A DNA stretch of 64,000 nt from positions 32,001-96,000 of IMG/VR virus record IMGVR_UViG_3300005805_000047. One strand, given 5' to 3'. Under the pieces are notes generated by a model. That model was not told the origin of the DNA. It made no database searches and worked only from the letters and a program-made list of their open reading frames with translations. Both the position numbers and the translations under genes were made by a program. Source of the DNA: a virus. Shown here piece by piece: positions 9,985 to 48,960 of this stretch (position 1 is its first letter; every line of letters begins with the position of its first letter).

Positions 9985-11985
9985 ATGGCTTGGAACTCAC
10001 CTAAAAACAAGGGATCGCTTGCTTCATCTGGCAAGTCAGCAGTTGGCCCCGGTGCGCCCATCGCCCAAACGCTTGGACTTGTTGGAAAATCCTACAAAGA
10101 TTCGTGGGACATTGAACGCGCCTACCGAGAGGGTATGCAACGCGTTACTTGGGTTGCTCGTTGTATTGATGTCATAGCAGGGAACCAAGCACGTCTGCCA
10201 ATTATTTTGCGGAAAGACAATTCCCCCGATGGAGAAATTCTTTCTGACAAGAAGATGAACAAATCATCTTTGCTTGAAGTTTTGAATACAAAATCAAACA
10301 TTGGCGAGAATGCTTTCATTTTCAGATACAGACTCTCAGCACAATTGCTCCTCGGCACCCGTGGTGCCTTCATTGAGAAGGTTCGTGGCAGGGATGGAAG
10401 TATCGTCGGACTAAATCTTTTGCCACCCCAAGCAACTGCCCCGATTCCCGATGCAAAGAAATTTGTTTCTGGTTATGAAGTGACACTGCCTCATGGTCAG
10501 ACAACAATTCTAAAGCCAGAGGATGTTGTTTGGGTTCGCCGACCACACCCACTTGACCCCTATCTCTCGCTAACACCCATGGAAGCAGCTGGGGTTGCTA
10601 TTGAGATAGAGAATTTTGCCAAACTTTACAATAGAAATTTCTTAATGAATGACGGTAGACCCGGCGGTTTGCTCGTCGTTCGTGGAATGCTTGACGAGGA
10701 AGACAAGGAAGAACTAAGGAATAGGTTTAGAGGAAATCTTTCTCGCGCTGGACAAACAACCGTTCTTGCCGCAGATGACGGTGCCGAATATGTTGATGTC
10801 GGCGCTTCGCCACGAGATGCTGCCTACATCCAAATGAGGCAAATAACAAAGGAGGAAATCCTTGCTTCATTCGGTGTTCCCGAATCTGTTATCGGCAATG
10901 CTTCTGGTCGAACATTTTCAAATGCTTCCGAGGAAATACGAGTGTTTTGGACCGAGACAATGCTTCCACACTTGGAGCCGATTGCCAGATCTCTTGATGA
11001 GTTAGATGATGTCAACTATGTGGACTTTGATACCAGTGAAGTGCCGGTTCTTATGCTCTACAAACAAGAACGAGAGCGCTACCTAAGTGACGAGTTCTCT
11101 CGAGGTCTCATTAGCCTCAACGAATACCGAATGGGAAGTGGTCGCAAAGAGGTTCAATCGGATCTCGCGGATTCATTGTTGATGAACCCGAACCTCACTC
11201 CAATTGGTAATACGAAAAAGAAAATGGAAGCACCACCAATGATGATGCCGGGTGGTCCGCCACAGGGTGCCGTACCCGGAATGGAAGCAGGCGGGCAACC
11301 TCCAGCAATGCCAGAAATGCCGGGGGCAGGCACTCCACCAGCACCAGAAGGTGCAGAGCCAGACACAATGGCTGGGGCAATCGCCGCCGCCATGCAGCAA
11401 GCCAACCCATCTGGGGCAACCGATGTCCCAATGGCAACGGCAGAGCCAGCACCAATTGGTCAAGTTCCAGTCGAGGTGAAAGAAGCAGATTCAGAGAGGG
11501 CAGTGGAGCGATGGGCAGAAATACTTGGACGCTCATTGGAACGACTCATTGAAAGACAGCAAAGAGTTGTTATGGAGAAGTCCTTTGGGTCGAAGTCAAG
11601 GAAGGCACTGTCATCTGGAACCCTTGAATCTTCATCGGTGTTCAACAAGGACATCTGGGTCAAGCAATTGGAAGACGATGTTCGTCCAGTACTGTTCGCC
11701 ATCATGCAGGACTCAGCAGAATCTAACGGCCTGCCAAAACCAGAAAAGAAAGACATGTTGAAAGCGGCAGAACTGAGCTTGTTGCAACTCCAGGATTTAA
11801 ATGAACAAATTGGCAGAGATATTGAAACGGCAATTAAGTCAGCAATCTCCACAACGGGCGAAAATGCTCGGTCGGCTGTGTTCCGAGAAACCCTTATTGA
11901 GAGCTATGCCCAGATTGATGCCAAGGATCGATTTGTTCTCGCTCAGCATGTTGCGTCATCGCTTTGGGGTCAATTTAGTAATTAG
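9985..11985 (+). CDS. HK97-family portal protein with Pro/Met-rich linker and C-terminal extension
   Basis: WVARCIDVIA, LLLGTRGAF, LSLTPMEAA, NDGRPGGLL, EILASFGVPES.IG. Confidence 0.93.
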   Translation: MAWNSPKNKGSLASSGKSAVGPGAPIAQTLGLVGKSYKDSWDIERAYREGMQRVTWVARCIDVIAGNQARLPIILRKDNSPDGEILSDKKMNKSSLLEVLNTKSNIGENAFIFRYRLSAQLLLGTRGAFIEKVRGRDGSIVGLNLLPPQATAPIPDAKKFVSGYEVTLPHGQTTILKPEDVVWVRRPHPLDPYLSLTPMEAAGVAIEIENFAKLYNRNFLMNDGRPGGLLVVRGMLDEEDKEELRNRFRGNLSRAGQTTVLAADDGAEYVDVGASPRDAAYIQMRQITKEEILASFGVPESVIGNASGRTFSNASEEIRVFWTETMLPHLEPIARSLDELDDVNYVDFDTSEVPVLMLYKQERERYLSDEFSRGLISLNEYRMGSGRKEVQSDLADSLLMNPNLTPIGNTKKKMEAPPMMMPGGPPQGAVPGMEAGGQPPAMPEMPGAGTPPAPEGAEPDTMAGAIAAAMQQANPSGATDVPMATAEPAPIGQVPVEVKEADSERAVERWAEILGRSLERLIERQQRVVMEKSFGSKSRKALSSGTLESSSVFNKDIWVKQLEDDVRPVLFAIMQDSAESNGLPKPEKKDMLKAAELSLLQLQDLNEQIGRDIETAIKSAISTTGENARSAVFRETLIESYAQIDAKDRFVLAQHVASSLWGQFSN

Positions 11986-12075: not shown

Positions 12076-12585
12076 ATGATGGACAACCTTCTTTTTAAGT
12101 CAGGCAACAGTGGTCAAGTAAACATTGATGAGGCGCAGGGCATAGTTGAGTGCTTTGTAGCTGGAATCGGAAACAAGGACTCTGTCGGCGATGTTGTTAT
12201 TTCTGGTGCATTTGCCAAGAGCCTTCTCAGAAGAAAACCACGAGTCGTTTGGGGGCATTCGTGGAATGATCCAATCGGTAAAGTTTTGGAAATGTACGAA
12301 GTTCCCATTGGGGACTATCGCCTACCAGCCAAGATGCGCAATGCAGGAATTGGCGGTCTTTATGCCAAGGTTCAGTTCAACCTAAATTCAGAAAAAGGCA
12401 AAGAGGCTTTTGCGACCGTTGCATTCTTCGGCGAAGATCAAGAGTGGTCTATTGGTTACAAAACCATCGATTCAGTTTTTGACCCAAACCTGCAAGCAAA
12501 CATTCTCAAAGAAGTTGAACTGTACGAAGTATCACCAGTTCTTCATGGCGCAAATCAACTAACTGGAACAATCTCAATTAAGGGC
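12076..12585 (+). other. HK97-type prohead protease domain (peptidase S78) of the giant protein
   Basis: GNKDSVGDVV..GAF..SL, WGH (His at 12256)...PIGK, WSIGY (Ser at 12448), LYEVSPV..GAN. Confidence 0.92.
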
Positions 12586-15500
12586 GATGAGAAGGGTCAT
12601 ATGCCCATTATTCCAATGCCGGGAATGGGGGCAACAATGATGCAGGAAATGCCCCGCATTGTTGTTATTGCTGCCCCACAGGATGGTGCCAACGAATCAA
12701 GTGAAGGCGACCCATTTGCTGCAGGAATGTCACAGGAACTTTCACAGCCAGACAAGATGGCACTTCAAGCAGAACTAACTGAACGAACTGGTTCGAAGAT
12801 TGAAGTAATGAATGCAACCGAGAACACCGTCGTGTTTAGACGTACAACACAAGATGGCAAAGCATCGATGTACAGACTCCCTTATCACAGGGAGGGTGAC
12901 CAATATATGTTTGGAAAGCCAGAACCATACACCGCAAACAACCCGACACCTCAACCAATGCAGAATATTGAGCAGAAGCCAGGTGCACCAGTCGTCGTCC
13001 CAAATGGTGGTATTGCATATCGCAATGATGACCAACAAGAAATGCTAAGTATGTTCTCCAACGAGAACATGGTTCAGTCGCCATGGGGTAAGTCAGATGT
13101 ATCCCACCTCATTGAACTACCAGAGTCATACATGGCGAGTGCGAAAGATTTTATTTCTCCAGTTCTTCGCCACCACAAACTTGCTGCCCGACCAAATGCT
13201 AAGGGAATTGTCATTGATGGGTTATTGACAGCAAATGCACTAGATGCTCTCCAGAATGCCGTCAAGGCTTTGGGAGCAACGCTCGGCCAAACGAGCGGAA
13301 ACATTGGCCAGGCAATTGGAAAGATTCGCGACCTTGCGCAAACATTCAATCCGTATGCGCTTGACGGTGACGGCGACGGGTTTGTTCAAGACGGAAGTGC
13401 ATTCCAAAGACCGTATATTCCTATCAAGAAGCCTGGTTTTGATTTACCAGATGTCCGAGGTCGCAAGCGAAGCGGCGATGTACTACTTGACAAGCCACGC
13501 TCTACTCCGAAACTTCCCAAAGACAAGAACACTTGGACTCGCGCACAACGCAACGAAGCGCTACTTGCAGGCATTGTTGAACCAGAGACCAGAGAAGATG
13601 TTTCATTCCTTGCCAATCGTCGCCCAGAAAATGAGGGACTTGCCAAGTATTGGGACATGTCGGAATCTGATCTCACTAAAGAGGGAAACCGACTCGTCAA
13701 TTCCAGAAGGCAATCCACTGGTGCTGAGAAGGAGAAGATTGACGAAGAGTTGCTGAAGGTTTCGCACGAATTCCAGCGACGCGCTTCGTATGCCGAAACA
13801 TTTGGTCAAGAGTTTGTGCCGCCAGCAAAACGCGAAGTCCCAGAAGCGATGGTTCCGGAAGCAGATAAGCCAAAGCCGGCCAAGCCAGGTAGAACAGAAG
13901 CAGAAGGTCTTGCATCTGCCGGAAAAGTGTTTGATGCCCTGAATACCGATGACCTGACAGATGGCAAGGGTTATCGAAAATGGGAAGACTTGGACGATGA
14001 CGAAAAGTTGGAAATGTTCCAAGAAGTCCAATATGACTACCTGTACGAAAACTACGGAAATCTTGGCGACGATGGTCTCGTTGAAGCAATGGAAGATCCT
14101 AGGTATGACGACGAAATCCTCGAACACGCAGAAATGGTTTATGACAAGATAAAAGCCAAGCGCGAAGAAGATGGCGACATGGCGGCAGATTCCGCTATGG
14201 ATAGGGCGCGCGAAGAGGATGGCTTTGGTTCACGTGGAGAAGAACCAGATGCTGATTCACTGGCTCAGCGCGACAGAGAGAGGGCACTTGACGAACAAGC
14301 AGATGCTGCTCTTGATCGTGCCCTTGAAGGTTTCATTGATAAATATGGCGAAGATGAGTTTGACAAGTTAACAGCAGAAGAGCAGGACATCCTCCTTGAG
14401 CAGGGCAGAGATCAAGCAAGGGGACTTGCATCATCTGGAAGCAAACTGCATACCAATACCGATGTATTGATGGAAATTGCTCGCCGCGATGGCTGGAGGG
14501 GTGGCGACAAGCAACCTCCTGTTAGGTCGTACCGAAAAGCACAGGAAGCCCTTGACGACTGGAACAAGCTCTCATTGGAAGAGCGCAACAGCCTGCTTGA
14601 TAACGATGAACCAACAATCAAAGAATTTGTGGATGCACTACTCAAAGCCCGCGACAACAGACTTGCTGGAATCAGATCCGTTCAAGCCGAGCGCAGAAAT
14701 GCCGAACGAAAGCGTCGTGCCGCAGAGGAAAAACTAAAGAGACAGTTTGCCCGCGGCGATACATCGGGCGTAGATACGAGTGCGCTTGCGGACTATTTCC
14801 CCGAGGACGAATACGGCAACCTTGGCCGAAGTGGTCGTGAGTATGTCGATGCTGTTTTGACAAACTGGGCAGAAATGTCCCAAGCTGACAGAGATAAAGC
14901 AATCCGCGATAACAGAACTATCGTCGAGGATCCAGATTCTGTTGTTGAGACCCTCAGGGATGCACTCAGTGAATACGGATACAAAAATCCCAAAATCGCA
15001 CAATTCCTTGATGAAGCAGAAGCAGAAGCAGACATGCTGGAGATGTCTGGTTTCGAATCGCGGGGTGAGGGCAAGTTCGGGTCAAACCCCGAGGACAGCA
15101 AGGCCGCACAAATATTTGATGCAATTCTTGACAAGTACTGGAAGATGTGGGGATTTGATGTTCCCGATGCAGATGACAAGGGTTGGGATGAGCCGTTTGG
15201 TTTTGCCAGTCTTGGAAATGACGAGGAAGTAAAGCAATCAAAACTTGATGAACTCGTTGGCGGTGTCAGGGAAAGATTGATTGCCGAACTTGAGACTGCC
15301 GATCCAGCAACATGGAGACCATCTTGGAGAAATGATTCTCTTCCAATCAATCCGATAACCGGAAAACCATACAGGGGCTTCAATGCATTCTGGTTGATGA
15401 TGCGCACAAGTGGCGAGAACTACAGAACTGGTCGGTTTGCTGGCTTTAATCAATTGAAAGCACGTGGTGCTCAAGTTCGCAAGGGCGAGAAGGGTGTTCC

Positions 15501-18500
15501 CATCCTGCGTCCACAGTTGGTCAAGAAGGAAGATGAAGACGGCAACATTAAGGAATTTGTTGTATTCCGTGGTGCAACCGTATTCAATATTGACCAAGCT
15601 GATGGTGGCGACGAGGCCCTCAGGGCAATACCGGCCGACCTGCCAGAGTCGCAAAGAATTGCAATCCTTGATGAAACATTGAAGGAACTTGGCGTAAGTG
15701 TTCGTACAGAGAACATCACACCGCACTACAACCCGGATGGCGATTACATCTCCATGCCAGATTTCTCAAAGGGAACCAGCCCGCTTGAATGGACTTCAAC
15801 ACTTGCCCATGAGGCAGTGCACTGGACTGGGCACAAGTCGCGCCTTGATCGACCAAGCCTCAGGGATTACAGTTCAGACAAGAAGGTCAGAGCATACGAG
15901 GAACTTGTAGCAGAAATTGGTTCCGCAATGTTGCTCGCCGCACACGGAATAGATGCTCCGTTCCGCCAGGATCACGCCCCATACATCAAGGGTTGGGTTT
16001 CGCTTTTGAAAGACGACCCTGATGCTCTTGGTAATGCATTCAAAGATGCGCAGGCCGCAGTCAACCACATGCTTGAGAAGTCACCAAACCTGCGCAAACT
16101 ATTCGGTGGTCTTGATAATGGCAAGAAAGCACCCGACGTTGATGCCTCAACAGAAGTCAATGTTCCTGTTGGTGCGAGCGAGGGTTTTGCATCGCTACAT
16201 CGCGTTCGCACCCCAGGTAGCGAAGCACTTGCTGGAGTTCTATATGACGACAACAGCGGCGAACTCATGGTCGGCTTCCTCAAGGGTAAGTCGTGGGATG
16301 ATTTGGGCGATGATGAGAGAATCGCTTGGATTGACCGCGTCAATGCAGGGCGCGCAGAAGTTGGTGGATACAAGCGTCCGCTTAACGACTCAGAAATTGA
16401 CGACTTGGCACGTGAAGCATACGAAGATGCTCGTGATGTTGGTTGGTACGTCTATGAAGGCGTCACCATGGAAGAAGTTCAGGAACTTGCCGCAGTAAAG
16501 AGCAAGGGTCGCCACATCAATGCCCTAAAGAAACTCAAGAAGGCCCGCAAGGCATCCGATGAAGATCAGTTCAACTTTTTTGGAAGGTCTGAGCGTGTCC
16601 AAGATGTAGCAAAGACAAAGCAGACCGATGGTTTCTCCTCGCGTGGTGGAAACGACAACATGATTGTCGAAAGAGACCCACGAACTGGTTATATAACAAT
16701 TAGTGCGATGGTTACGGGTGACCGTGGTGCCAGCGAAGAGAATCGCGGAACACGACGAATGAGGGTCATAGTTGCCGGCGGCTCAATAGCCGAAGCAAAA
16801 CGAAATTTCAGAAACAGAATGAAAGAGGACAAAGTTTCATTCGCTGGCGACAGTGATGGATTTGCCTCACGCGGACCTGCTGAACCAAACGAGGGATTGC
16901 GCCGGCATAAATTGATGCCAGTAGATATCCGTGAGAGAATGCCAGAACTTTACTCAACAGAAGATGTGGATACCGAAGATAAGATTTTGGCAGTAAAGTT
17001 TTTCTCACCATACTCCAATTGGACTTGGTACGGAGTTGAGTTTGACGGCGAAGATACTTTCTTTGGTTATGTAGAAGGATTTGAAAAAGAGTGGGGCAAC
17101 TTCTCCCTCAGTGAACTTGCTGGTGCACAGTTGGGTAATGGAATTCCTGCCGTTGAAAGGGACATGAGCTTCCGACCAACGAAGTTTGAGGATCTCAATG
17201 GCGAAGGAATGCCAACAATCACCGAGGATGGGTTTGCTTCCGGTGGCTCAAAGAGAATTGGTATTGAGCCGCAATACAACGATCCACGATGGATTGACAA
17301 AACCCAACAGCGAATTCTGAAACAAAATACAGACTGGAATAGTTTGTCACATGATGACCAAATTGATTGGGCAAACTCTTTCCTTGACGAGTATCTCAGA
17401 GAAAATGAAATGGGTCATGGTTTGTCGGATGTTGCCAACGGTCGCAGACTGACTGGTCGCCCAGACATTGACCTACTGAACTATGCAGAGGATGCATACA
17501 GCAAAATGTCAGATGCACATATGCGTAGGCGAGCCCAATTTGGTGAAACAGACGAAGGTTTTTCATCCGTTGGTCGTCGTACTCGCAGGCTCGGAACCAA
17601 GCCAAGCGATGCCGTTGACTACGTTGCGTGGGATCCAGAGACAGAGAGCCTCTTTGTTGCCTACAAGCGCGGTGACGGTCGTTCACAGATGTATGTCTAC
17701 GAAGGTGTCAACTCCGATGAGGCATTGGCAGTCGAGAATGCAGACAGCCTCGGTAAGGCAATCAACGCAATCAAGAGAGCCAAGAATGTCCGACAGGCAA
17801 CCCCAGAAGAAGTGATGGGTCTTGCCGATACGGATAAGAGAGAAGCGAGCGAGACAAGGAAGCGACTCGCCAGATTGGTGCTTGAAGAGACCAGAGATGC
17901 CCTCAAGGGGATGGAAGTTGAATTCTTGAGCGACACTGAAATAAATGTGTCGGATGGTTCAGAAAAAATGGTTCGCGTCTCCCTTGACCCGGACACATTG
18001 GAGTTTACGGTCAGCAAGATTCGCACTATTCGCGGCGGCAGGGAAGAGCCAGATGATGAAGAGCTCTACGATAGCGAAAGCGCACTAAGTGCCGGAGATG
18101 TGCGAACGCTTACCGGTCTCTTCATGAACGACCTTCAGAAAGATCTGGATGAGGAAAGTCGTCTTGAGCGAGAAATTGATGATGCTCGACGCGAACTTGA
18201 CATGGCCGGAGATGCTCCAGGGGTCGAGAATGTCGATGTTACATACTCAACAGCACTAGATGCAGTTGATTACAACCCGTCAACACAGGAACTCCGTGTT
18301 TCGTACAAAGACGGCGGAACATACATTTACGAAGGCGTTGACCGAACTGCATTTGAGGAATTCAAGTCTGCCCCAAGCAAGGGTCGCGCAATGAACGACA
18401 TTAAGCGCGCCCACCCATACCGAAAAGATAGCGAGTGGACTGGCGGTGTCGATGAGGATCGTGGCATAGAGGAATTTGATGTTCGTGGCTCAGAAGCAGT

Positions 18501-21500
18501 TGAGAAAGTCACCTATGACCCGAGCAAGGAAGAACTCACGGTCGTTTATTCTGGTGGTAAGGGCTACGTCTACACGGCAGTTACCCGAGAAGAAGCAGAT
18601 GCTGTTCGTTCAGCACCAAGTAAGGGTCGCGCAATTAATGATGTAAAGCGTACCCACGATGTTCGAAAGGCAGATGCACCAGTAGAGGAACGACCAACTG
18701 GCAGTCGTGGAATATCTCCTGATGTCAGTAAGGGAAAGTCGTTTGATGAAAGACTGGAACTTCTTGAAAAGTTGACACAAGAAGAAGATGACTTGGCAGA
18801 CCGCCTAAGCGGAGAGTTTGATGGTGCTAATCCAAAGGGTGATTACCTTACCCGTGGCGATGCACAGGGGTCGGCCACTGCCACAAGTCGCAAGAAATAC
18901 GGAACCGATGCATTCAAGCTGCTCAATGATTTGTTTTCCTCTGCAACACCAGCAGAGCGAGAGAAGATTAGGGAATGGTTTGATGGGCGCGAAAAGAGAA
19001 TGTCGGCAGAAAGAGCCGCTCGTACATCACGAACGATTGATCCCGCACCGACAGCAGCACCCAAAATGCCAACTCGCAAACCACCACGAGGTGGCAAGCG
19101 TGTCCGCAACCGCAATGTGGTTATTGAGATGGAGCAGGGCACCCTTGATGAAATTATGGAGGCAGAATCCAAGAACATCACGGTGGATGCGCTTCGTGAT
19201 GCCGCTGGTTCCGTAAATGGAAAGTACACAAAGGGTCCACGTAAGGGCAAGAACAGGGGTTCGGACACCATTACGGTGAGAGATGCAGAAACCGGCGAAC
19301 TCCTCCATGCTAACGAAATACTTCTCACATCATCTGTCATGCGCGGCAGTCCAACGGCTGCCAATAGGAAGCGCGGCTACATCAGAGCACGTTCGTATGC
19401 TGGTCGTCAAGGGCACAACATCACCAAAGATGAAGGTCCAAGTCTGCGCGGCGAAGGTCGTGGAATGACCGATTACGACAAGCGCGTGTACGGTCTTGGC
19501 TCAGATGAAAAGAACCGCGAATACGGTCTCGCTTCACGGTCAAGTCTTGACAGATTGCTGACTGAGCCAACTCCCCAAGAAGAGGTGGAATCCTTCCAGA
19601 GATATCTTGACTCCGAGTACGGCGAGTACTTCATGGACTACACCCAAATGGATGATGAGGAACTCAAGAAAACCTTGATGCAGCGTTACCGAATGAGTCG
19701 CAGTGAAGCAAATGCAACTGCCAGACAGATTCGCAAGGATCAAGACACTTTGGATGAGCTGTACATGGCGGCAGATGATGCTGGCTTTGATTCTCGTGGC
19801 GGACGAGAACTTGTCGTTCCTGACGAATATCGCATGTATGGCGTGACCAAGGATGCCCTACTGGATGAACTATATAGCGAAGATCTAGATGAGGACGAAG
19901 CAGAAAGAATTGCTGATTACTGGGCTCAATCTGATGGTTTGTGGGATAAGTATTTGGATCGCGCAATCAGTAACAACGAGGGCAATGTACTTAGGGCAGT
20001 ATCAGATGCAGCACAACAAGCCTACGAGGATTACCTCAGTGCATCAGCGGACAGCCTTGAGCAGAGACGACTTGACGGCTTTGCCTCGCGTGGTCAGCGC
20101 CTTGGCGAAATTAGGCCGATGGAAACTGCTGGTAATAACTGGATTGAATCAGCACGGCTTGCAGAACCTCTTGACATAATTAATCTTGAAGATGATGATG
20201 CAAGGGAGAAATTTGAGGAAGCCCTAATTGAGGCCGGGGTGCTTGATCGCATCAATACGTCTGAGTACATGGACGATGTCTATGAAAGAATTCTCGTATT
20301 TGCACCAGACACCGACAACGGAATAATGGAAGCAGCCAGTGGTAACCAAGCTAGGAATGCACCAAGAACTCGATACATAGTCCCCACCAAGGACAATAAA
20401 TATGCAATCGTTGAATTTAGTGGCGACTACGACGGTGCACCAGATGGACCTCCGGGTTATTACCCGAACTACGAAGTGGTGGATACGGCCCCGTCAATTG
20501 GAAGCGCCATAAGAAATGTTCAGAAACGTGAACAAAACGACATTGGTGCCCCTACCGGCAGGGCAGGAGGTCGTACATCGGAAGAAGGCTTTACATCCAG
20601 CAGCTACGAAAGTGATGCTGAGTTTCTGACTAGAAGAGCCAAAGAGCGAGAAGATGTGCTTAATGCACCAGTAGTAAAGGGAGAAAAGAGCCCATTACTA
20701 GACATGAGTCCATATAGCGCATTTGATGCATTCTATGGTGGCGGCTCCAAGTTCATTAGGCGCAGTGAGCAAACCTATGATATCTACGGTCCGGTTTCAA
20801 TGCCAATCGCTCAACAAGACAGTGCATTCCATACTGGATTTGCCGATCAAATAGTCAAAGACTTCTCCAGAAGTAATCTGACAATTGATGAACTTGCAGA
20901 CCGATTTGATATCACGCCAACCCAAGTTCAGGAAGTTCTTTTGGATGCCAAAGCAAACATGCTTGACCTTGAGCGACTGCGCGAGAAACAAAAAAAGACA
21001 TCGTTGCGGTCAACAGAAGAATCTGATATTAGGGCCGGCGAAAGGGTGGAGAAAATTTTTGTTGGCGATCGCAAGCATACAGACATCCCAGAATTGACCG
21101 GAGAAGCCCTTGCAAGACGAGAGCAGAGACTGGCGCATCGAAGAGCCTTGGCAGAGAATGATGCCATAAGAGAAAAAGAAGGTGCTGCGCTGAAAGAACT
21201 TGAGCGCACCACAGAGTATCGAGATGCAGAAAGCAATTACAGCCGAGCTCAAACCTATAACCGTCAACACGAGTACTGGATTGGTAAAGGTATAGAACTC
21301 CAGGAAAACATAGACAATCTCAAGGAGACAGACGACCTGTCTCTCCTCACCACCAGTGCATTAAACGGCGAGGACGTTCTTGACATACTCAAAGAAATAA
21401 ATGAAGATTGGGATTTGGATTTTAGAGATCCAACTGCCGATTGGTACGAAAATGACTATGGGACTTTGGTTGATTGGGATGGCGAAGAAGTTAGTTACGA

Positions 21501-24500
21501 CCAACTTGAATGGGATGATTTTGAAGTTGACCTTGAAAGTCTGAGCATCGAAGAACGTCAAAAACTTATTGATGCGGTAAAAGAGAAAAAGAATTGGATT
21601 CTTGAAACAGCACAAAAAAATGCGAGAGAGTTGGGTTTTTCAGAAATTCCAAACGAAAGAGATCTTCAAAAAGCAATCAGGGACAGTAACGCTGCCGCCA
21701 GAAAGCCAATTGAGGATATGAGGAATGAAGTCGCTAAAAAGTTCCCGAAAGTTCGCGTCCCAGAGGAACCCTCAAAGAGATCTTCGCTTTATGGTATCCG
21801 TAATGAAAAGGGTCAATTCCTTGAACTTGAAGAGTTGGCCACTGGGTGGGCAGAAGAAATACGGGTTGCCAAAGCTGAATCAGCAGCGCAAAGAGCTGAA
21901 CTGAATGCCCAATTGAACCGCGGCGACCAAAATCTTGAGGATGGCTTCGCCTCAAGGTATTCACGGTACGAGGGTGGCTGGGATGCAGTTGCTGAGTCCA
22001 GTGAAATGCCAAACCGACCAGAACGAGCAACCCCAATGTGGGACGACCTGGATGAGGATCAGCAGAACGAGTTCATCCACGAAGTGGATTACGACTACAT
22101 GTACGACAACCACTTCGGTCTCGGTGATGATGGAATCGTTGAGGCCATGGAAGATGGAAAATATGACGATGCGATAAGCGAACACGCGCAAATGGTGTGG
22201 GACACAATCGCTGAAAGAAAAGAAAAGAAACGCTTGATTGATGCGGTTACTGCAACTGGGGTAGATCCAGAAATGGCAGGACCAATTGCCGATTACTGGT
22301 TCAACAGCGATGGCATACACGACAAGTACATGAAGAGGAGTAACGGCGACCTCGGTAAAGCAATGGAAGTTGCCTACGAGGATTATCTCAGTGCGTTGGC
22401 AGACATGCAGGAAGATGGCTTTGCCTCTCGCGGTTCTGCAACAAAACCATCCGTTGATGCTGAAACACAGAAAATTATTGAAGGTGCATCGCTTGGTCAA
22501 TTAGCAGAAATGATTCAGGACGATTTGGCTGATCAAGGAAAGGAAATGTACTTCGGAGCAGTTCCCTATATTGATGCCCTATCCACCATGGATTCCATGG
22601 ATGACCGATATGGCGCCGATTCAGCACAAAGTGTCGTTGCCTATGCGCTGAGCAACCTTCAGACCTACAAGGGCGCCAAGGCGCGAGCAATTAAGGCAGA
22701 ACTCAAGAAGCGACTTGATGAAAAAGTCAACAGAGATGGCTTTGCCTCGCGTTCAAGTGGCACAGATTGGGGTCCATTGGCTGGAGAGGTTGCTCCTGCA
22801 AGACCACTTAGGATTGAAACTGAATGGTTGAATTTTGAGGATTTAGACCCAGAAGAGCAAGATCAACTCATTCGAGATGGCATTGAGAACATTGACCGAG
22901 TGGCTCAACCAGACATTGACCTAGAAGCTGAGAGGGACTTCATAATTGAGGAATATGACCGTGAAGCCAGAGCGGCCCGATCCGATGCGGCCGAATCACT
23001 GCTGAAAGAAATATACGAACTCTGGGACCAAGATGCTGATGCCGATAATATTTTCCAAAAAAACGGCAACCTTGCCTACGCAGAAGAACTAGTCAAGAAC
23101 GGAGACTATGTTGAAGATTATGAACTTGCTGAAGCAAGAAATATTGTGGATGAAGTCAGAGAGCGATGGGAAGAGCGTAAAAAGAATTCAGTAGATGACG
23201 AACCCTCGGACATAGACGACGAAGACAGCGATGGCTTTGCTTCTCGTATGCCCAATGATGGCGAACGACTCATGAGGAGAGGGAATAGGGACTTCCTATC
23301 CGATGAGTTCTCGCCACGTGAATATAGGCAGGCAATGAGTGGGTTGGACAAGGTCAGGAATAACACCGGGTCTCCTGTTACCACAGAGGAGAATGCCGCC
23401 ATCAGGAAACTTGCCGACCTCTATCGCGCGAGACCAAAGACAACGCGAAATGAACGAGATGCAATCAACGATGTAGTAAACAGTCTTAATAGTTACAGAT
23501 CTCGCCGAAGTGGTAACGAAGGCTTTGCCTCACGCGGTGGTCGCACGGAACAGATTGATGTACGCAATTCCAGTGCCGTCGAGCAGGTCACCTATGATCC
23601 ATTGAAAGAGGAACTTCTCGTCGTCTATAGCGGCAACAGAGGATACATCTACGAGGGTGTCACTCGTGGCGAGGCAGATGCACTGATTGATGCCCCAAGT
23701 AAGGGGGGCGCAATCAATGGCATCAAGGCAACACACTCGTTCCGCAAGGCATCCGATTCGGATGTTATGGACTTTGATATTGATCCAGTTGCTGTCCGCA
23801 AGGCAGAAGTTGATGCAAACTGGGAAAGGCTTCCTAGTTCCGACAAGGAGCAATACCTCAGGCGCGCGACCAATGCCGGCATAGCCGACGGAACCGGTGA
23901 ATCTGCTGATGAACTGTTGTCCGCCGCCAAGTTGCGAGCCATGGACGACAGAGAACTGGCAATGCTTGAACGTGAAGCAATCGGCAGGGGTGAATCCTCA
24001 TCGCGCCGAATTGATGTCTCATCTAGCTCTGCGCTCAACTACGTGGACTACGACGAAAAGACGAGAACACTAAGTGTTGAGTTCCGTGGACGAGATGGCA
24101 ATGGGAATGGAACTCTTTACAACTACCAAGGTGTTGAACCAGACGTGGTTGACGAACTTGAGAACTCAGACAGTCGCGGTGCGACCATGCGTAGAATCAG
24201 GGACAATTACGAGTTTACGACGAGCGAGAGACTGCCACAGTCTGCATACGAGGGTCTTTCATCGCGCAGTGAGACGGACAGACTCGCCGCTTGGAAGCCA
24301 GTAAACCAAGATCTCAGAAGCCTGAGAGATCGAGTCAAAGGTAACGAAATCAATGATGGCTTGATTGGTATTGGGGATGCAGAGGTGAGGCCAGGTAGTG
24401 ACTTCTATAGGGCTCGTCGGAGAGCATACATGGGCCTCATGGATGAACTTGAAGAAATAATCGCCAATGCAAAAGAAGAGGGAAACCTTGACTTGGTTGG

Positions 24501-26772
24501 GCCGACAGAGAAGTCAAGGGGTCGATTTGAGAGGCTCATCAATGCAGGTGACTGGGCACAGGCCAGATTCCACATGATAGGAGAAATTGCCTCAGTTCGA
24601 GAATCAAGAGCCAGTGCAGAAAACGGCTTTGCCTCGCGGGGTGGTCGCAAGTCAACCGAAGAGTACAAAAAGATAGTTGACTCATTGCCAGATCCGACCG
24701 AGCGTCCGAACAAGAACAGATACATGCAGGCAGCCGATGGTGCTCGCAATGTTGTTGAGGACAGGTATGCACTTATTCATGCTCGTCGCAGAATAGCCAA
24801 AGAGATGGCAGAAGCAAACGGCGTGGAGTGGAAAGACGGCGTAGACATCTTTGATGTTACCAACGGCGATGATGATGATTTAGAAATCTTGATGGATCTT
24901 GACAACAGGATTGAAGAACTCAATAAGTACGTCACTGCCAATGACAAGGAATATAGGCGAGTTCGCAACATGGAACAGTTGGTGCTCCAGAAGGACTCCG
25001 AATTGTCTGACATCAAAGACGGAATAGACCTCGCACTTGAAGAGTACGAAATTACCGAACAAGACATTAGGGAATATTCGGGCGAAAATGCCAAGGAATG
25101 GTTCACCACAACACCAGAGGAAAATACAAACGAATTGGCAAAAAGCCTAAGAGGCAGATTGCTGGATCTGAATAATCATGAGGATGAAAACGACAATACT
25201 TCTCTCTCCAGAGAATATTCGGAAGATATCACCAAAGTCATAAAGTTAATCAGAAATGGAACGCCGGAAGATTTGCGTGAAGCCGCAGAAACAATGCAGG
25301 AAATTATCGGTAAGCAGAGAAGCGATTATCAAGACCGATACAAGTCCTACGAGTATGAAGGCGACGAACTAATTGACTCTGGTTACCGTTCAGTTCCATT
25401 TTTTGACGAGGAATCTGACCTTGACTTGGATGGGGAAGATGATTGGGACTACTCGCAAGAGATAGATGAAGAAGATGGAAGATTGAATGTAATTGCCGAT
25501 GAACTCTACGGTCCTGAGCCAAAGGACAAGGAGACGGTTGACGAGTACATGTCAATGAGTACGGAGGATGGTTTTGCTTCGGGTGGTCGTCGTCGCCCAG
25601 GTCGCCGCAATCAGGGTGGCAACGGCCAACGTATGGCTCCTACGACTCGCTATTCTGATGAAGATAGGCAGAACTTGGCCGATAGGAACATCCTTAGGTC
25701 TCGTAAGCGTCCTGCCAAACGGCGTCAACCACCGGATCAGTCTGAGTGGGAGGGTTTTGCCTCAACGAACCTAATTGACGATGATGTCAATGATATGGCC
25801 ACTGACCCGCGCGGTGCATTTGAGGGTGGCGAACACGGGCCAGGCAAAGATATCTCTCTACGGAAGATGTGGGAAAACATCCGTAGGTCAGGAGAGAATA
25901 ACGAGTGGTTTTCTGAATCAATGAGAGCAGAAGACTTGGCGAGAGATTTGAATATTCCTCGAAATGTCGCACAGGCACTACTTGATGCCAGACCACAATC
26001 TGGTCGACCTGAAATGTTCATTGACAATCCGTATCTGGCCGACACTCTTAGCCAAAGAATAGGCATGAGTAGAACTCGTTTGTTTGGATTTGACCCACTT
26101 AAGTATTACGACGATGAGGGCAACCCAGCATCCACACCAGAAGAGATTGATGCGGCCATAGAATCTGAGCGAGCACGACGTGCGGCGAGACTTGCCGCCC
26201 GAGAAGGTCGCAGAACCGGCAAGGGAGATCTCTATCGCGGTGAATCATCCAATGTTGATGTCCGTGACCTTGAGTCAAAACTCAACATAAAGTTGACCGA
26301 CGATAACGGGGATCTCCTTAAGCCAACTGCCCTTGAGAGAGCGGCACGAGATACTGGTCTGGGTTGGAGTCTTGAGAAGTGGCGTCGCATCCACAGCAGG
26401 GGTGGTGCGTTGACACCGCAAGATATTGAGAAACTTGTCGAGCGTGGGATTCTTGGCAAAGAGGCAATGCCGGAAAGGGGAGACCTTTCTTTTGGGGAGG
26501 TATTCCAGTGGCCAGGGTTTGCAGACCTAGGGTCAAGCAGAATCATTGATGCCCTTTCAGAAACCCTCGGATTGAGCAGGGACGAGATAATGAAACAGCG
26601 TCGAACAATCCAGCAAGCCCTTGCCCTTGCCAACAAGGGTCAGAGAAAGACAATATCCACAAGGAATTTACAGCAAGGGAAACTCAAATTGACCAGAGCC
26701 AAGATTGCAGAACTTGCCGAAAGACTTGGCCTTGATGCTTCTGAGTTTGACCGCTGGTTCAGTGGCGAGTAA
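12076..26772 (+). CDS. giant 4,898-aa prohead protease-fused multidomain polyprotein (S78 protease, ArdC, 6x KTSC, DUF2958, ~23 GFAS linkers)
   Basis: Uninterrupted ORF in the prohead protease gene position; domains recognised by motif, see sub-features. Confidence 0.9.
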   Translation: MMDNLLFKSGNSGQVNIDEAQGIVECFVAGIGNKDSVGDVVISGAFAKSLLRRKPRVVWGHSWNDPIGKVLEMYEVPIGDYRLPAKMRNAGIGGLYAKVQFNLNSEKGKEAFATVAFFGEDQEWSIGYKTIDSVFDPNLQANILKEVELYEVSPVLHGANQLTGTISIKGDEKGHMPIIPMPGMGATMMQEMPRIVVIAAPQDGANESSEGDPFAAGMSQELSQPDKMALQAELTERTGSKIEVMNATENTVVFRRTTQDGKASMYRLPYHREGDQYMFGKPEPYTANNPTPQPMQNIEQKPGAPVVVPNGGIAYRNDDQQEMLSMFSNENMVQSPWGKSDVSHLIELPESYMASAKDFISPVLRHHKLAARPNAKGIVIDGLLTANALDALQNAVKALGATLGQTSGNIGQAIGKIRDLAQTFNPYALDGDGDGFVQDGSAFQRPYIPIKKPGFDLPDVRGRKRSGDVLLDKPRSTPKLPKDKNTWTRAQRNEALLAGIVEPETREDVSFLANRRPENEGLAKYWDMSESDLTKEGNRLVNSRRQSTGAEKEKIDEELLKVSHEFQRRASYAETFGQEFVPPAKREVPEAMVPEADKPKPAKPGRTEAEGLASAGKVFDALNTDDLTDGKGYRKWEDLDDDEKLEMFQEVQYDYLYENYGNLGDDGLVEAMEDPRYDDEILEHAEMVYDKIKAKREEDGDMAADSAMDRAREEDGFGSRGEEPDADSLAQRDRERALDEQADAALDRALEGFIDKYGEDEFDKLTAEEQDILLEQGRDQARGLASSGSKLHTNTDVLMEIARRDGWRGGDKQPPVRSYRKAQEALDDWNKLSLEERNSLLDNDEPTIKEFVDALLKARDNRLAGIRSVQAERRNAERKRRAAEEKLKRQFARGDTSGVDTSALADYFPEDEYGNLGRSGREYVDAVLTNWAEMSQADRDKAIRDNRTIVEDPDSVVETLRDALSEYGYKNPKIAQFLDEAEAEADMLEMSGFESRGEGKFGSNPEDSKAAQIFDAILDKYWKMWGFDVPDADDKGWDEPFGFASLGNDEEVKQSKLDELVGGVRERLIAELETADPATWRPSWRNDSLPINPITGKPYRGFNAFWLMMRTSGENYRTGRFAGFNQLKARGAQVRKGEKGVPILRPQLVKKEDEDGNIKEFVVFRGATVFNIDQADGGDEALRAIPADLPESQRIAILDETLKELGVSVRTENITPHYNPDGDYISMPDFSKGTSPLEWTSTLAHEAVHWTGHKSRLDRPSLRDYSSDKKVRAYEELVAEIGSAMLLAAHGIDAPFRQDHAPYIKGWVSLLKDDPDALGNAFKDAQAAVNHMLEKSPNLRKLFGGLDNGKKAPDVDASTEVNVPVGASEGFASLHRVRTPGSEALAGVLYDDNSGELMVGFLKGKSWDDLGDDERIAWIDRVNAGRAEVGGYKRPLNDSEIDDLAREAYEDARDVGWYVYEGVTMEEVQELAAVKSKGRHINALKKLKKARKASDEDQFNFFGRSERVQDVAKTKQTDGFSSRGGNDNMIVERDPRTGYITISAMVTGDRGASEENRGTRRMRVIVAGGSIAEAKRNFRNRMKEDKVSFAGDSDGFASRGPAEPNEGLRRHKLMPVDIRERMPELYSTEDVDTEDKILAVKFFSPYSNWTWYGVEFDGEDTFFGYVEGFEKEWGNFSLSELAGAQLGNGIPAVERDMSFRPTKFEDLNGEGMPTITEDGFASGGSKRIGIEPQYNDPRWIDKTQQRILKQNTDWNSLSHDDQIDWANSFLDEYLRENEMGHGLSDVANGRRLTGRPDIDLLNYAEDAYSKMSDAHMRRRAQFGETDEGFSSVGRRTRRLGTKPSDAVDYVAWDPETESLFVAYKRGDGRSQMYVYEGVNSDEALAVENADSLGKAINAIKRAKNVRQATPEEVMGLADTDKREASETRKRLARLVLEETRDALKGMEVEFLSDTEINVSDGSEKMVRVSLDPDTLEFTVSKIRTIRGGREEPDDEELYDSESALSAGDVRTLTGLFMNDLQKDLDEESRLEREIDDARRELDMAGDAPGVENVDVTYSTALDAVDYNPSTQELRVSYKDGGTYIYEGVDRTAFEEFKSAPSKGRAMNDIKRAHPYRKDSEWTGGVDEDRGIEEFDVRGSEAVEKVTYDPSKEELTVVYSGGKGYVYTAVTREEADAVRSAPSKGRAINDVKRTHDVRKADAPVEERPTGSRGISPDVSKGKSFDERLELLEKLTQEEDDLADRLSGEFDGANPKGDYLTRGDAQGSATATSRKKYGTDAFKLLNDLFSSATPAEREKIREWFDGREKRMSAERAARTSRTIDPAPTAAPKMPTRKPPRGGKRVRNRNVVIEMEQGTLDEIMEAESKNITVDALRDAAGSVNGKYTKGPRKGKNRGSDTITVRDAETGELLHANEILLTSSVMRGSPTAANRKRGYIRARSYAGRQGHNITKDEGPSLRGEGRGMTDYDKRVYGLGSDEKNREYGLASRSSLDRLLTEPTPQEEVESFQRYLDSEYGEYFMDYTQMDDEELKKTLMQRYRMSRSEANATARQIRKDQDTLDELYMAADDAGFDSRGGRELVVPDEYRMYGVTKDALLDELYSEDLDEDEAERIADYWAQSDGLWDKYLDRAISNNEGNVLRAVSDAAQQAYEDYLSASADSLEQRRLDGFASRGQRLGEIRPMETAGNNWIESARLAEPLDIINLEDDDAREKFEEALIEAGVLDRINTSEYMDDVYERILVFAPDTDNGIMEAASGNQARNAPRTRYIVPTKDNKYAIVEFSGDYDGAPDGPPGYYPNYEVVDTAPSIGSAIRNVQKREQNDIGAPTGRAGGRTSEEGFTSSSYESDAEFLTRRAKEREDVLNAPVVKGEKSPLLDMSPYSAFDAFYGGGSKFIRRSEQTYDIYGPVSMPIAQQDSAFHTGFADQIVKDFSRSNLTIDELADRFDITPTQVQEVLLDAKANMLDLERLREKQKKTSLRSTEESDIRAGERVEKIFVGDRKHTDIPELTGEALARREQRLAHRRALAENDAIREKEGAALKELERTTEYRDAESNYSRAQTYNRQHEYWIGKGIELQENIDNLKETDDLSLLTTSALNGEDVLDILKEINEDWDLDFRDPTADWYENDYGTLVDWDGEEVSYDQLEWDDFEVDLESLSIEERQKLIDAVKEKKNWILETAQKNARELGFSEIPNERDLQKAIRDSNAAARKPIEDMRNEVAKKFPKVRVPEEPSKRSSLYGIRNEKGQFLELEELATGWAEEIRVAKAESAAQRAELNAQLNRGDQNLEDGFASRYSRYEGGWDAVAESSEMPNRPERATPMWDDLDEDQQNEFIHEVDYDYMYDNHFGLGDDGIVEAMEDGKYDDAISEHAQMVWDTIAERKEKKRLIDAVTATGVDPEMAGPIADYWFNSDGIHDKYMKRSNGDLGKAMEVAYEDYLSALADMQEDGFASRGSATKPSVDAETQKIIEGASLGQLAEMIQDDLADQGKEMYFGAVPYIDALSTMDSMDDRYGADSAQSVVAYALSNLQTYKGAKARAIKAELKKRLDEKVNRDGFASRSSGTDWGPLAGEVAPARPLRIETEWLNFEDLDPEEQDQLIRDGIENIDRVAQPDIDLEAERDFIIEEYDREARAARSDAAESLLKEIYELWDQDADADNIFQKNGNLAYAEELVKNGDYVEDYELAEARNIVDEVRERWEERKKNSVDDEPSDIDDEDSDGFASRMPNDGERLMRRGNRDFLSDEFSPREYRQAMSGLDKVRNNTGSPVTTEENAAIRKLADLYRARPKTTRNERDAINDVVNSLNSYRSRRSGNEGFASRGGRTEQIDVRNSSAVEQVTYDPLKEELLVVYSGNRGYIYEGVTRGEADALIDAPSKGGAINGIKATHSFRKASDSDVMDFDIDPVAVRKAEVDANWERLPSSDKEQYLRRATNAGIADGTGESADELLSAAKLRAMDDRELAMLEREAIGRGESSSRRIDVSSSSALNYVDYDEKTRTLSVEFRGRDGNGNGTLYNYQGVEPDVVDELENSDSRGATMRRIRDNYEFTTSERLPQSAYEGLSSRSETDRLAAWKPVNQDLRSLRDRVKGNEINDGLIGIGDAEVRPGSDFYRARRRAYMGLMDELEEIIANAKEEGNLDLVGPTEKSRGRFERLINAGDWAQARFHMIGEIASVRESRASAENGFASRGGRKSTEEYKKIVDSLPDPTERPNKNRYMQAADGARNVVEDRYALIHARRRIAKEMAEANGVEWKDGVDIFDVTNGDDDDLEILMDLDNRIEELNKYVTANDKEYRRVRNMEQLVLQKDSELSDIKDGIDLALEEYEITEQDIREYSGENAKEWFTTTPEENTNELAKSLRGRLLDLNNHEDENDNTSLSREYSEDITKVIKLIRNGTPEDLREAAETMQEIIGKQRSDYQDRYKSYEYEGDELIDSGYRSVPFFDEESDLDLDGEDDWDYSQEIDEEDGRLNVIADELYGPEPKDKETVDEYMSMSTEDGFASGGRRRPGRRNQGGNGQRMAPTTRYSDEDRQNLADRNILRSRKRPAKRRQPPDQSEWEGFASTNLIDDDVNDMATDPRGAFEGGEHGPGKDISLRKMWENIRRSGENNEWFSESMRAEDLARDLNIPRNVAQALLDARPQSGRPEMFIDNPYLADTLSQRIGMSRTRLFGFDPLKYYDDEGNPASTPEEIDAAIESERARRAARLAAREGRRTGKGDLYRGESSNVDVRDLESKLNIKLTDDNGDLLKPTALERAARDTGLGWSLEKWRRIHSRGGALTPQDIEKLVERGILGKEAMPERGDLSFGEVFQWPGFADLGSSRIIDALSETLGLSRDEIMKQRRTIQQALALANKGQRKTISTRNLQQGKLKLTRAKIAELAERLGLDASEFDRWFSGE
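15214..16100 (+). other. ardC: ArdC antirestriction module (ArdC-N/DUF1738 ssDNA-binding plus zincin-like MPTase) within the giant protein
   Basis: W..SW, PINPITGKPYRGFN, FNQ....GAQVRKGEKG, VFNIDQ, HEAVHWTGHKSRLDR (15808), YEELVAEIGSA. Confidence 0.9.
16201..24213 (+). repeat. six dispersed KTSC domains in the giant protein (~16201-16540 split, 17602-17780, 18232-18420, 18475-18660, 23554-23740, 24010-24213)
   Basis: Each matches S.A(V/L)..V.Y(D/N)....EL.V.(Y/F)..G..Y.Y.GV.......L..A.SKG...N. Confidence 0.85.
16912..17190 (+). other. DUF2958-like module within the giant protein
   Basis: VKFFSPYSNWTWY..EFDGED.FFGYV.G.EKEWG.FSLSEL...ERD..F.P. Confidence 0.8.
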
Positions 26773-26821
26773 CCGAGTGCTAATGTTGATTGTGAATATT
26801 TCGTTGAAGGGATTTTGCTAA

Positions 26822-28255
26822 ATGAGCATGACAGAGGACGCAGTACCTACGGTAAGTGTTGATGCTGAAGGTGGCATTCTTGGCTGTGCCAAGGGTGTTG
26901 ACATTGCTCAGTGTGGCTACGTCAAGGGCGACAAGGTTTGTGGCAAATGTGGTGCCGTTCCCGTTGAGATGAAGGTTATGCCTGCATCTGTTGCGGCGGA
27001 GTTGCTTGCAAAGGCGGCCAAGTTGGATGAAGAGCTCACCAAAAAGCAAACTACCCCAAAGCCAACTAAGCCAGTTCGCAAAGTGCAAATGGAAGATGCT
27101 GACTCCGATGAAGAAGAGGCCATGGAGGTCGAAGCAGAAGTGGCCGACGAAGAGGCAATGGAAGAAGATGACGAGATGCTGGATGCCGTAGAGGTTAATC
27201 CAGAAGTACCAGAGGCAGATGAAGAGGACGACGAGGACGAAGAAGATCAAGAAGAAATGGCTGAAACATCCGACGAAGAAGAGATGGAGGATGACGAGGA
27301 AGAGGAAGATGACGAAAATGAAATGTCAGCTAACCCTCAGTCGCTTCTGGACAAATTTCGCAAAGCCAGACTTCAGCAAATTGGCGTAAAGTCGGCAGAC
27401 GTTGGCGAGCATGGCTACAAGTGCGCAATGGATGGAAAGGTTTATGCAGGAGGAACACCTCCGTGCGCCGATTGCAGTGGTGGTTGCTTTGGGACCAAGG
27501 GTCAAGTAACGATTCTTCATGCCGAAGGAATTTCTCAAACCCTTGTCAAGGGCGATGTTGTTGATTCTGCCTACATAGACAAAGCAGATATGTTCGTCAC
27601 GACAATTCGTCGCAAAGACGGAAAAATGTTTGACGTTTATGTTGATTCTGTTGGGGAAATTCGAGGACACAACCTTATTGACTCCAGCACAATTTACGAT
27701 CCCTCTGTTGATGATTTGACAATGGTGACATTTGATGAAGCGGCAAATATTGCGATAATGCACCTACAGCGCAAAGACGCCGAAGTGGTGAGCATTCAGC
27801 CAGCTGCATTTGAGGGTCACGAGGCATATGTGGTTGACATTCAGTGCAAGACCGGAGAGAGCTACGATGTGTTCGTAGGTATTGATGGAACATTGCTCGG
27901 CTACGAAACACTTCAAGAGCCAGACATTGAGGAAATTGAAGCAGAAGCCGCCGAAATAGCACTGAAATCGGCCTATCCATATGCCGTAAGGTCAGAACTC
28001 GCTAAAGCAGGCATAGCAATGCCGGATGGTTCTTTCCCCATACTTGCTCATAACGATTTGCTAAATGCAATACAAGCATCAAAGCGCGCGACAAACAAAA
28101 AAGAAGTCAGAGAGCACATTATTCTTAGGGCAAAGACGATTGGGTACGAGAATTCAGTACCGTCATCGTGGGTGGAAATCGGCGCCGCTGAGATTCAGGG
28201 AAGCCTCGAGGAATTCGACAGGCTCCTTGAGGAGCTTGACACGGACAAGGAGTAA
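26822..28255 (+). CDS. head-associated protein: Cys clusters, long acidic tract, two PepSY-like repeats, C-terminal PDGSFPI domain
   Basis: CGKCG, poly-D/E, VTFDEAANIA...VVSI......AYVVDI....G.SYDVFV..DG.LLG. Confidence 0.7.
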   Translation: MSMTEDAVPTVSVDAEGGILGCAKGVDIAQCGYVKGDKVCGKCGAVPVEMKVMPASVAAELLAKAAKLDEELTKKQTTPKPTKPVRKVQMEDADSDEEEAMEVEAEVADEEAMEEDDEMLDAVEVNPEVPEADEEDDEDEEDQEEMAETSDEEEMEDDEEEEDDENEMSANPQSLLDKFRKARLQQIGVKSADVGEHGYKCAMDGKVYAGGTPPCADCSGGCFGTKGQVTILHAEGISQTLVKGDVVDSAYIDKADMFVTTIRRKDGKMFDVYVDSVGEIRGHNLIDSSTIYDPSVDDLTMVTFDEAANIAIMHLQRKDAEVVSIQPAAFEGHEAYVVDIQCKTGESYDVFVGIDGTLLGYETLQEPDIEEIEAEAAEIALKSAYPYAVRSELAKAGIAMPDGSFPILAHNDLLNAIQASKRATNKKEVREHIILRAKTIGYENSVPSSWVEIGAAEIQGSLEEFDRLLEELDTDKE

Positions 28256-28258
28256 CCC

Positions 28259-36650: not shown

Positions 36651-36757
36651 TTGCGCTGTAAGCCTTTGATTATCTAGTATCTTGGTGAAGTATCGGTTGG
36701 GTGCTATACCTAAACTGGAATTCCATTCATCCAATCACTATCACAGAGGAAACCAAG

Positions 36758-48909: not shown

Positions 48910-48960
48910 ACACCTTCCGAATGCTTGCCCATGGACATGGGATGGGCTAATATCAGTGCC

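Follow-up and report, generated by a model that had tools for sequence, protein, structure and literature searches.

The DNA analysed here, a 64,000-nt window covering positions 32,001 to 96,000 of IMG/VR virus record IMGVR_UViG_3300005805_000047 (a complete 150,897-bp record with terminal repeats, G000, from an uncultured phage of ~151 kb), holds on its plus strand a reading frame that stays open through 4,898 codons and encodes a full-length product of 545 kDa. This giant ORF sits in the head module, in the interval between the portal and major capsid protein genes (related loci L002 and L003 share the synteny), begins with a prohead protease domain and is then punctuated by a recurrent short peptide motif. 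An initial annotation, made from the letters of the sequence, had read it as a chain of about 24 small proteins that the protease carries into the procapsid and frees there. The features of the ORF are the following, with positions referring to the window unless another genome or locus is named:

12076-26772, plus strand: protease-headed cargo polyprotein, 4,898 aa (open frame; Pfam domains; at least 193 giant homologues)
12130-12570, plus strand: Peptidase_S78 prohead protease domain (Pfam)
12256-12258 and 12448-12450, plus strand: codons of His61 and Ser125 in the S78 domain
12760-13290, plus strand: conserved post-protease region, aa ~229-405 (alignments with relatives)
13333-13419, plus strand: 29-aa DGDGDG tag, aa 420-448 (65% identity to aa 38-66 of a second polyprotein)
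13903-25770, plus strand: 24 motifs x-G-[FL]-x-S-x-G, in frame, with first bases at 13903, 14218, 14419, 15046, 15196, 16180, 16627, 16855, 17227, 17554, 19489, 19522, 19780, 20074, 20584, 21940, 22414, 22735, 23230, 23518, 24250, 24622, 25567 and 25750
15196-16191, plus strand: ArdC module (ArdcN plus MPTase zincin), 328 aa between two motifs
16855-17238, plus strand: DUF2958 module, 124 aa between two motifs

Pfam placed Peptidase_S78 (PF04586) at aa 19-165 with 38.3 bits against a cut-off of 21, and the region matched phrog_3244, a head maturation protease. His61 (VWGHSWN) and Ser125 (QEWSIGY) were unchanged across 33 relatives, bearing out the earlier description of an intact N-terminal S78 protease in a single frame. 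By inspection, their local motifs match those around H65 (FFNHK) and S114 (EGMSVGF) of HK97 gp4, the catalytic residues of that enzyme. A sequence search of aa 1-610 against solved structures gave nothing significant. The other Pfam matches in the ORF were ArdcN (1065-1170), MPTase-PolyVal (1199-1321), DUF2958 (1619-1702) and five KTSC stretches. The ArdC module aligned to positions 6-307 of the 324-position profile of phrog_7245, an anti-restriction protein, and thus has the size of a stand-alone protein. With several unrelated effector-type domains, among them ArdC-N plus MPTase, and a position beside the portal and terminase genes, the product has the hallmarks of the polyvalent proteins defined by Iyer et al. 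in 2017 (PMC5512222).

All 23 motif positions listed in the initial annotation were found in frame as x-G-[FL]-x-S, and one further, weak match (GLGS at 19492) lies 11 aa ahead of the site at 19522. G[FL]xS was observed 24 times against 2.5 ± 1.6 expected from shuffles of the same protein, and GFAS 13 times against 0.064 expected from its composition. Over the 23 sites the seven-residue consensus is [D/E] (17), G (23), F (19) or L (4), A (16), S (23), R (14) and G (15), so that an acidic residue before and an arginine after the core are indeed usual. About seven of the sites are weaker variants (EGLASAG, RGLASSG, SGFESRG, YGLASRS, AGFDSRG, EGFTSSS and EGLSSRS). Synonymous codons vary at every position: the glycine is encoded by GGT (10), GGC (10), GGA (2) and GGG (1), the serine by TCA (7), TCG (8), TCT (4), TCC (3) and AGT (1), and the mean pairwise nucleotide identity of the 21-nt motif windows is 61%. 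This pattern indicates selection on the peptide and not a DNA repeat, as the initial annotation had argued from the codons. At the same time, the motif serine is TCN in 22 of 23 cases and the arginine CGN in 13 of 14, where AGY/AGR make up 35-39% elsewhere in the ORF; this bias suggests that the linkers arose from one another by copying.

The motifs lie between modules. ArdC is bracketed by the sites at residues 1042 and 1370, DUF2958 by 1595 and 1719, and two KTSC copies by 3816 and 4060, while none falls within any reported Pfam envelope; the bracketing and the absence of motifs from recognised domains, both noted earlier, hold. Separation is not complete, in that segment 1828-2473 (645 aa) holds three KTSC copies. 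Hydrophilicity is higher in the 12 residues on either side of a motif than at randomly chosen positions of the protein (Kyte-Doolittle -1.33 vs -0.87). In an AlphaFold2 model of aa 985-1835, built from 18 sequences and of low confidence (mean pLDDT 45, unsuitable for fold searches), all seven motifs were in coil, and those at 1370, 1519 and 1595 coincided with sharp pLDDT minima between better-predicted blocks. In an alignment of 17 close homologues, the four core residues were better conserved than the linker flanks (0.73 vs 0.46).

Searching metagenomes with the first 600 residues as query returned at least 193 giant homologues among proteins of 2,693-8,572 aa, with a recorded S78 domain in all but one of the matches listed. 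Their cargo includes ArdC, UvrD-type helicases, sigma-70 region 4, many HTH domains, pentapeptide repeats, an exonuclease and KTSC. In nearly every giant homologue the most frequent 4-mer is a version of the junction motif that is specific to the lineage: GFAS-R-G, GLAS, GLRS, GMRS-R, GLSS-G, [KR]-LSSG-[RK], R-FSSG, LGSRS, STRS, SMRS, GMSS or S-ISGRMG. Absence of the motif from homologues, which the initial annotation had named as refuting its proposal, was therefore not what we saw. Copies begin at aa 450-670 and continue almost to the C-terminus, and giant proteins in which S78 and KTSC are the sole recognisable domains still bear the motif. Usage differs (GLAS vs GFAS) even between close phages with an 85% identical protease region. 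We also tried the segment after the protease domain as a self-cleavage site that tracks lineage and rejected it: G005 has NPASGRMGG there, and all other lineages have a conserved [DN]-[IP]-F-[AD]-E-G.

Module exchange follows the motif. Among 28 closer homologues, 30% of BLAST high-scoring segment ends lay within 10 aa of a motif, vs 10% expected, and single modules were found relocated between two motifs (aa 611-716 at 2888-2997 of P0009; aa 3719-3820 at 2597-2695 of P0016). The enriched segment ends and the relocated modules together indicate that the motif delimits exchangeable cassettes. These borders and the swapping favour the earlier picture of a chain of about 24 modules. Among cultured phages, those closest in capsid protein and protease (Gordonia phage Gray, Bendigovirus) encode a 455-aa protease that stands alone, and they show no recurrent motif; no isolate carrying the motif-punctuated system was found.

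The protease is attached to its cargo in three ways across the family: in-frame fusion, a -1 slippery site, and separate genes headed by the tag. Protease ORF length in relatives spans a continuous range from 467 to 5,687 aa. The second mode was seen at 16 loci from several sublineages, where a protease frame of 455-481 aa ends at a conserved GGT-TCA-AAA-AAA-T(AA):

L145-L163 and L173, e.g. L148:11340-11375: slippery-site loci, end of the protease frame

Past the slippery site, the -1 frame runs on for as much as ~3,000 aa or until the locus ends. It has no start codon close by and opens with conserved sequence followed by a DGDGDG-type tag. The A_AAA_AAA site is probably a programmed -1 frameshift, which would yield a minority Gag-Pol-like fusion of protease and cargo. 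The window gene is the in-frame version of this junction and has no A-run at that spot: its aa ~229-405 correspond to the remainder of the stand-alone 467-515-aa protease protein of relatives, and its junction with the cargo falls at the position of the frameshift site. In G002 and G003, tag-headed cargo proteins are separate genes; one separate cargo protein of 3,438 aa has GFAS eight times and no protease. With three modes of attachment, the constants are the cargo, the tag, the junction code and the association with the protease protein.

When the complete genome was scanned position by position for the strict motif, it turned up in four genes only, namely the giant ORF, a second polyprotein, a 1,456-aa neighbour and the tail tape measure, so the motif is not a feature of the giant ORF alone:

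28259-32629, plus strand: 1,456-aa head-module protein with gluzincin, KTSC and two junction motifs
28928 and 31301, plus strand: starts of its motifs EGFASLG and TGFSSMG
29708-29722, plus strand: its HEIAH gluzincin site (HExxH ... E-x-x-A-E; downstream E-A-T-A-E-L-Y-A), aa 484
61698-64000, plus strand: start of the second polyprotein, 3,152 aa, which continues past the window; tag at aa 38-66, DGFASRG at nt 63048
G000 24046-28947, minus strand (L190:4046-8905), outside the window: tail tape measure (phrog_167), with DEGLASRG at aa ~61 and GAGFASSGG at aa 643

The second polyprotein has six strict copies, and at least five further motifs lie beyond the window. The two polyproteins share the 29-aa tag (13333-13419 and 61809-61895), with the pattern ..F-[ND]-P-x-A-[LV]-D-G-D-G-D-G-[FL]-V-Q-D-G-S-x-F-[QE]-R-P.., which resembles a DxDxDG calcium-binding loop. 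The tag is a candidate element for capsid targeting or docking, and it is missing from the 1,456-aa protein and the tape measure. In G005, of the ISGRMG lineage, the tape measure has AGRMG..NGRMG at aa 47-60, the same N-terminal position. The C-terminal 350 aa of the 1,456-aa protein were its best conserved part across 55 loci.

The comparative evidence supports a polyprotein well, and this is its most economical reading; the linker motif would most likely be the cutting site. In the mechanism we propose, the first ~450 residues would form a complete prohead-protease protein, incorporated into the procapsid as in HK97-type phages. The DGDGDG tag would come next, ahead of a string of ~24 exchangeable modules that each fold on their own (among them ArdC anti-restriction, DUF2958 and KTSC, many of the others being of unknown kind), with [D/E]-G-F-A-S-R-G in flexible hydrophilic linkers serving as proteolytic processing sites. 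The protease module would bring the chain into the head in the manner of Gag-Pol, and the separated proteins would leave with the DNA. As the cutter we slightly favour S78, which would act before the invariant serine (F-A|S). Taken whole, a capsid-targeted cargo polyprotein cut at its linkers by the fused S78 protease seems to us a good possibility, somewhat short of an even chance.

The case for S78 begins with its being the sole enzyme universally fused in the giant homologues, and with the motif persisting in giants that have no recognisable domain besides S78 and KTSC. Herpesvirus assemblin cuts A|S. HK97 gp4 cuts gp5 at K103/S104 (PMC10275583), and in a MAFFT alignment this cut corresponds to a site in the capsid protein of our phage:

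37043-37057, plus strand: L-Q-S-I-G of the major capsid protein, aa 115-119

The site is kept family-wide as [ILYFA]-[KQE]-[ST]-[IL]-G, and L-Q|S-I-G is the probable N-terminus of the mature capsid protein. This site and the linker F-A|S-R-G share the loose pattern hydrophobic-x-S-x-G. Members of the GFAS class have Ser at residue 62, beside the catalytic histidine, where most members of the other classes have Asn, a correlation inseparable from shared ancestry. About 10 residues upstream of the capsid site, a segment weakly resembles the local linker in some lineages only: Q-L-S-S-R in LSSG, GLSS and FSSG phages, K-G-L-G-S in a GLRS phage and, partially, A-G-[YH]-[AS] in GFAS phages, with no linker likeness in ISGRMG, GMRS or FGRS phages.

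Several observations weigh against cutting by S78 inside the procapsid. In the genome-wide scan neither the capsid protein nor the portal had a strict motif. The HK97-equivalent capsid site is identical across lineages whose linker motifs differ, and across the same divide the S78 domain is 68-92% identical; an unvarying capsid site and a conserved S78 fit an unchanged specificity, not one that tracks the linkers. Nor does the conserved [DN]-[IP]-F-[AD]-E-G just past the protease domain track the linker motif. The motif in the tape measure does track lineage, yet the tape measure is not inside the procapsid, and the reader of the motif must therefore meet its substrates elsewhere too. This could happen in the cytoplasm of the producer cell or after delivery into a new host cell, which tape measure, cargo and any co-ejected protease would enter together. 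Finally, cleavage, packaging and ejection are putative throughout the giant-polyprotein family. Of the earlier proposal that the protease carries the chain into the procapsid and cuts it there, the attachment of head-module cargo to the prohead protease is supported across a large family. S78 is a candidate cutter; the strict motif is missing from the capsid protein, the only certain S78 substrate. A non-capsid protein, the tape measure, bears the motif, so that cutting could take place in the procapsid, in the producer cytoplasm or in a newly infected cell.

Within the same cargo-polyprotein architecture, the linkers may instead be read by the zincin of the 1,456-aa protein two genes downstream (28259-32629), and S78 would then be a carrier only, retaining its own invariant K/Q|S-[IL]-G sites. 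In favour of this, the capsid S78-type site does not track the linkers, and the tape measure bears the motif. In the window, L003 (LSSG), G005 (ISGRMG), L136, L142 and L139, the syntenic protein has a zincin at much the same place (aa 478-608). Its sequence changes quickly (28% identity, or no BLAST match at all, vs ~70% for S78 and the capsid protein), as expected of a reader co-evolving with a lineage-specific seven-residue motif. Thermolysin-type zincins typically prefer a hydrophobic P1' residue, which would suit the F, L, M or I that follows G, K, R or S in all common motif versions. However, motifs flank the zincin module just as they flank cargo modules, the phage has at least four other, effector-like zincins, and the family leads are weak and from a language model only (ATLF lethal-factor-like, M90, Phage_min_cap2 minor capsid). 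If the carrier of the zincin is a minor head protein, the tape-measure argument hits it equally, and no genome with the motif but without either S78 or the zincin was found. We regard the zincin as a serious competitor of S78, less likely than not to be the reader and only somewhat less probable than S78. Less probable again is a motif that is not cut at all and serves as a hinge, as a docking or recognition peptide for packaging or tail translocation, or as a site of serine modification within one giant polyvalent protein. N4 vRNAP, ArdC and TraC1 are delivered without cutting (PMC5512222); the tape measure passes through the tail like the cargo, so that its motif fits a translocation or recognition signal, and the TCN and CGN bias hints at linker descent by duplication. 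Set against this, a hinge needs no seven specific residues under purifying selection within variable linkers, sites so diverged in nucleotides (61% identity) are not DNA-level recombination scars, and a short, genome-wide, lineage-specific motif that falls precisely on module borders and accompanies a fused protease is the signature of polyprotein processing.

Cutting by a host protease, before assembly or after ejection, would be suggested by analogy. Head proteins of staphylococcal phage 80alpha are reportedly cut by the host protease Prp at an F|A-S site that copies the one in ribosomal protein L27, and G-F|A-S-R-G resembles this F-F|A-S-K-K-G site. Lineage motifs could follow hosts, and tape measure and cargo would share a compartment with the host enzyme. 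But the phage has no Prp gene, two WhiB genes point to an actinobacterial host, and Actinobacteria are not known to have the L27 extension and Prp system; moreover, GLAS and GFAS already differ between phages with an 85% identical protease region. We consider a host cutter very unlikely. Returning to the polyprotein, and leaving the cutter aside, the joint reading is of a large, uncultured freshwater actinophage family in which a true polyprotein strategy is at work. Strings of swappable modules, some of them recognisably anti-defence, would take up as much as a fifth of the genome and be attached to the capsid protease by fusion, -1 frameshift or docking tag, with a genome-wide, lineage-specific junction code read by a co-evolving phage protease. 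The code would also trim the tape measure and thus place all host-entering proteins under one code, possibly after delivery only. We give this broader reading about even chances.

If the linkers are cut, tailed phages would have a polyprotein of their own with Gag-Pol-like delivery, in which one gene would supply the capsid with dozens of small exchangeable proteins, an anti-restriction module among them. The junction code would parse thousands of unknown phage residues into functional units and make every inter-motif piece a candidate anti-defence protein. It would also offer a route to a sequence-specific phage protease with a seven-residue, lineage-varying site, possibly a tool enzyme, and it raises the question of which enzyme trims tail tape measure proteins.

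Head proteases of the T4 gp21 type (S77) cut after L/I-x-E or S/A/G-x-E. The internal proteins and Alt of T4, and their counterparts in phiKZ and SPN3US (PMC9026906, PMC10052503, PMC7411985), resemble the system proposed here: they are capsid-internal proteins targeted to the procapsid, the head protease trims them at a short motif, and they are then ejected. There, however, the substrates are products of separate genes, usually with one or few cuts, whereas here an S78 enzyme accompanies one chain with 24 junctions and the capsid protein lacks the motif. HK97 has a homologous S78 protease, with His and Ser conserved, and a homologous capsid protein whose cut site aligns with the family [KQE]-S-[IL]-G, but gp4 has 225 aa and no cargo, and the protease protein here has at least 467 aa and carries or frameshifts into thousands of residues. 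Retroviral Gag-Pol and the polyproteins of RNA viruses likewise join a targeting module and protease to motif-separated enzymes, and the A_AAA_AAA -1 frameshift of the relatives adds to the likeness; here the virus is a tailed phage with a dsDNA genome, accessory or anti-defence modules stand where the others have a replication core, and cleavage is putative. Phage N4 vRNAP and P1 DarB/DdrB are giant, virion-packaged, injected proteins that act early, some with MPTase zincins, yet they are single-function, without periodic junction motifs and without a fused head protease.

Polyvalent proteins come closest, as multidomain phage proteins of the head module with ArdC-N plus MPTase. Iyer et al. 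proposed that they are packaged with DNA and processed by fused peptidases, including an assemblin-like one described as rare and "always at the C termini"; the proteins in that work have 2-15 domains (PMC5512222). The present family differs in its N-terminal S78, found in at least 193 giants of up to 5,687 aa, and the periodic lineage-specific junction motif, the shared tag and the frameshift fusion are not described in that work. Processing as an idea is thus partly anticipated by the 2017 paper, and the N-terminal S78 fusion and periodic motif are not. The initial annotation knew of no prior description; our literature searches found none of S78-fused periodic polyproteins, and its claim holds to that extent. 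Cutting of the linkers would put to the test the idea, put forward in 2017, that peptidases carried by polyvalent proteins process them.

The remaining features belong to the head module around the giant ORF:

8441-9745, minus strand: large terminase (TerL), head module
9985-11985, plus strand: portal protein, directly upstream of the giant ORF
26822-28255, plus strand: acidic 477-aa protein, D/E-rich, with CxxC-like Cys clusters
36701-38143, plus strand: major capsid protein with N-terminal scaffold-like domain

The acidic protein follows the protease gene in all lineages, has no junction motif and may be scaffold-like; several smaller genes lie between the gene for the 1,456-aa protein and that for the capsid protein. 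The host is likely an actinobacterium, because there are two WhiB-family genes (44742-44951, plus strand; G000 139871-140062, minus strand) and the capsid protein and protease are nearest to those of Gordonia and Brevibacterium phages. Among 14 control genomes, the WhiB family had matches only in Corynebacterium. Together with the freshwater origin of family members, the WhiB genes suggest freshwater Actinobacteria as hosts. Both ends of the record (G000 1-60 and 150838-150897) lie inside a 21-nt tandem repeat (..CCAGTTCAGCCACCGGTTGAG..), and the call of a direct terminal repeat may rest on this coding repeat. Downstream of the head module are a B12-dependent ribonucleotide reductase (39513-41432, minus strand), a DUF932 protein (42836-43858) and a primase/helicase-like protein with Toprim plus AAA_25 (45023-46702). 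Further on, one C5 cytosine DNA methyltransferase, two N6/N4 DNA methyltransferases and a TauD-type dioxygenase are consecutive (48925-51006, 56499-57620, 57623-58885 and 58882-59712), a row that could serve self-protection or DNA modification.

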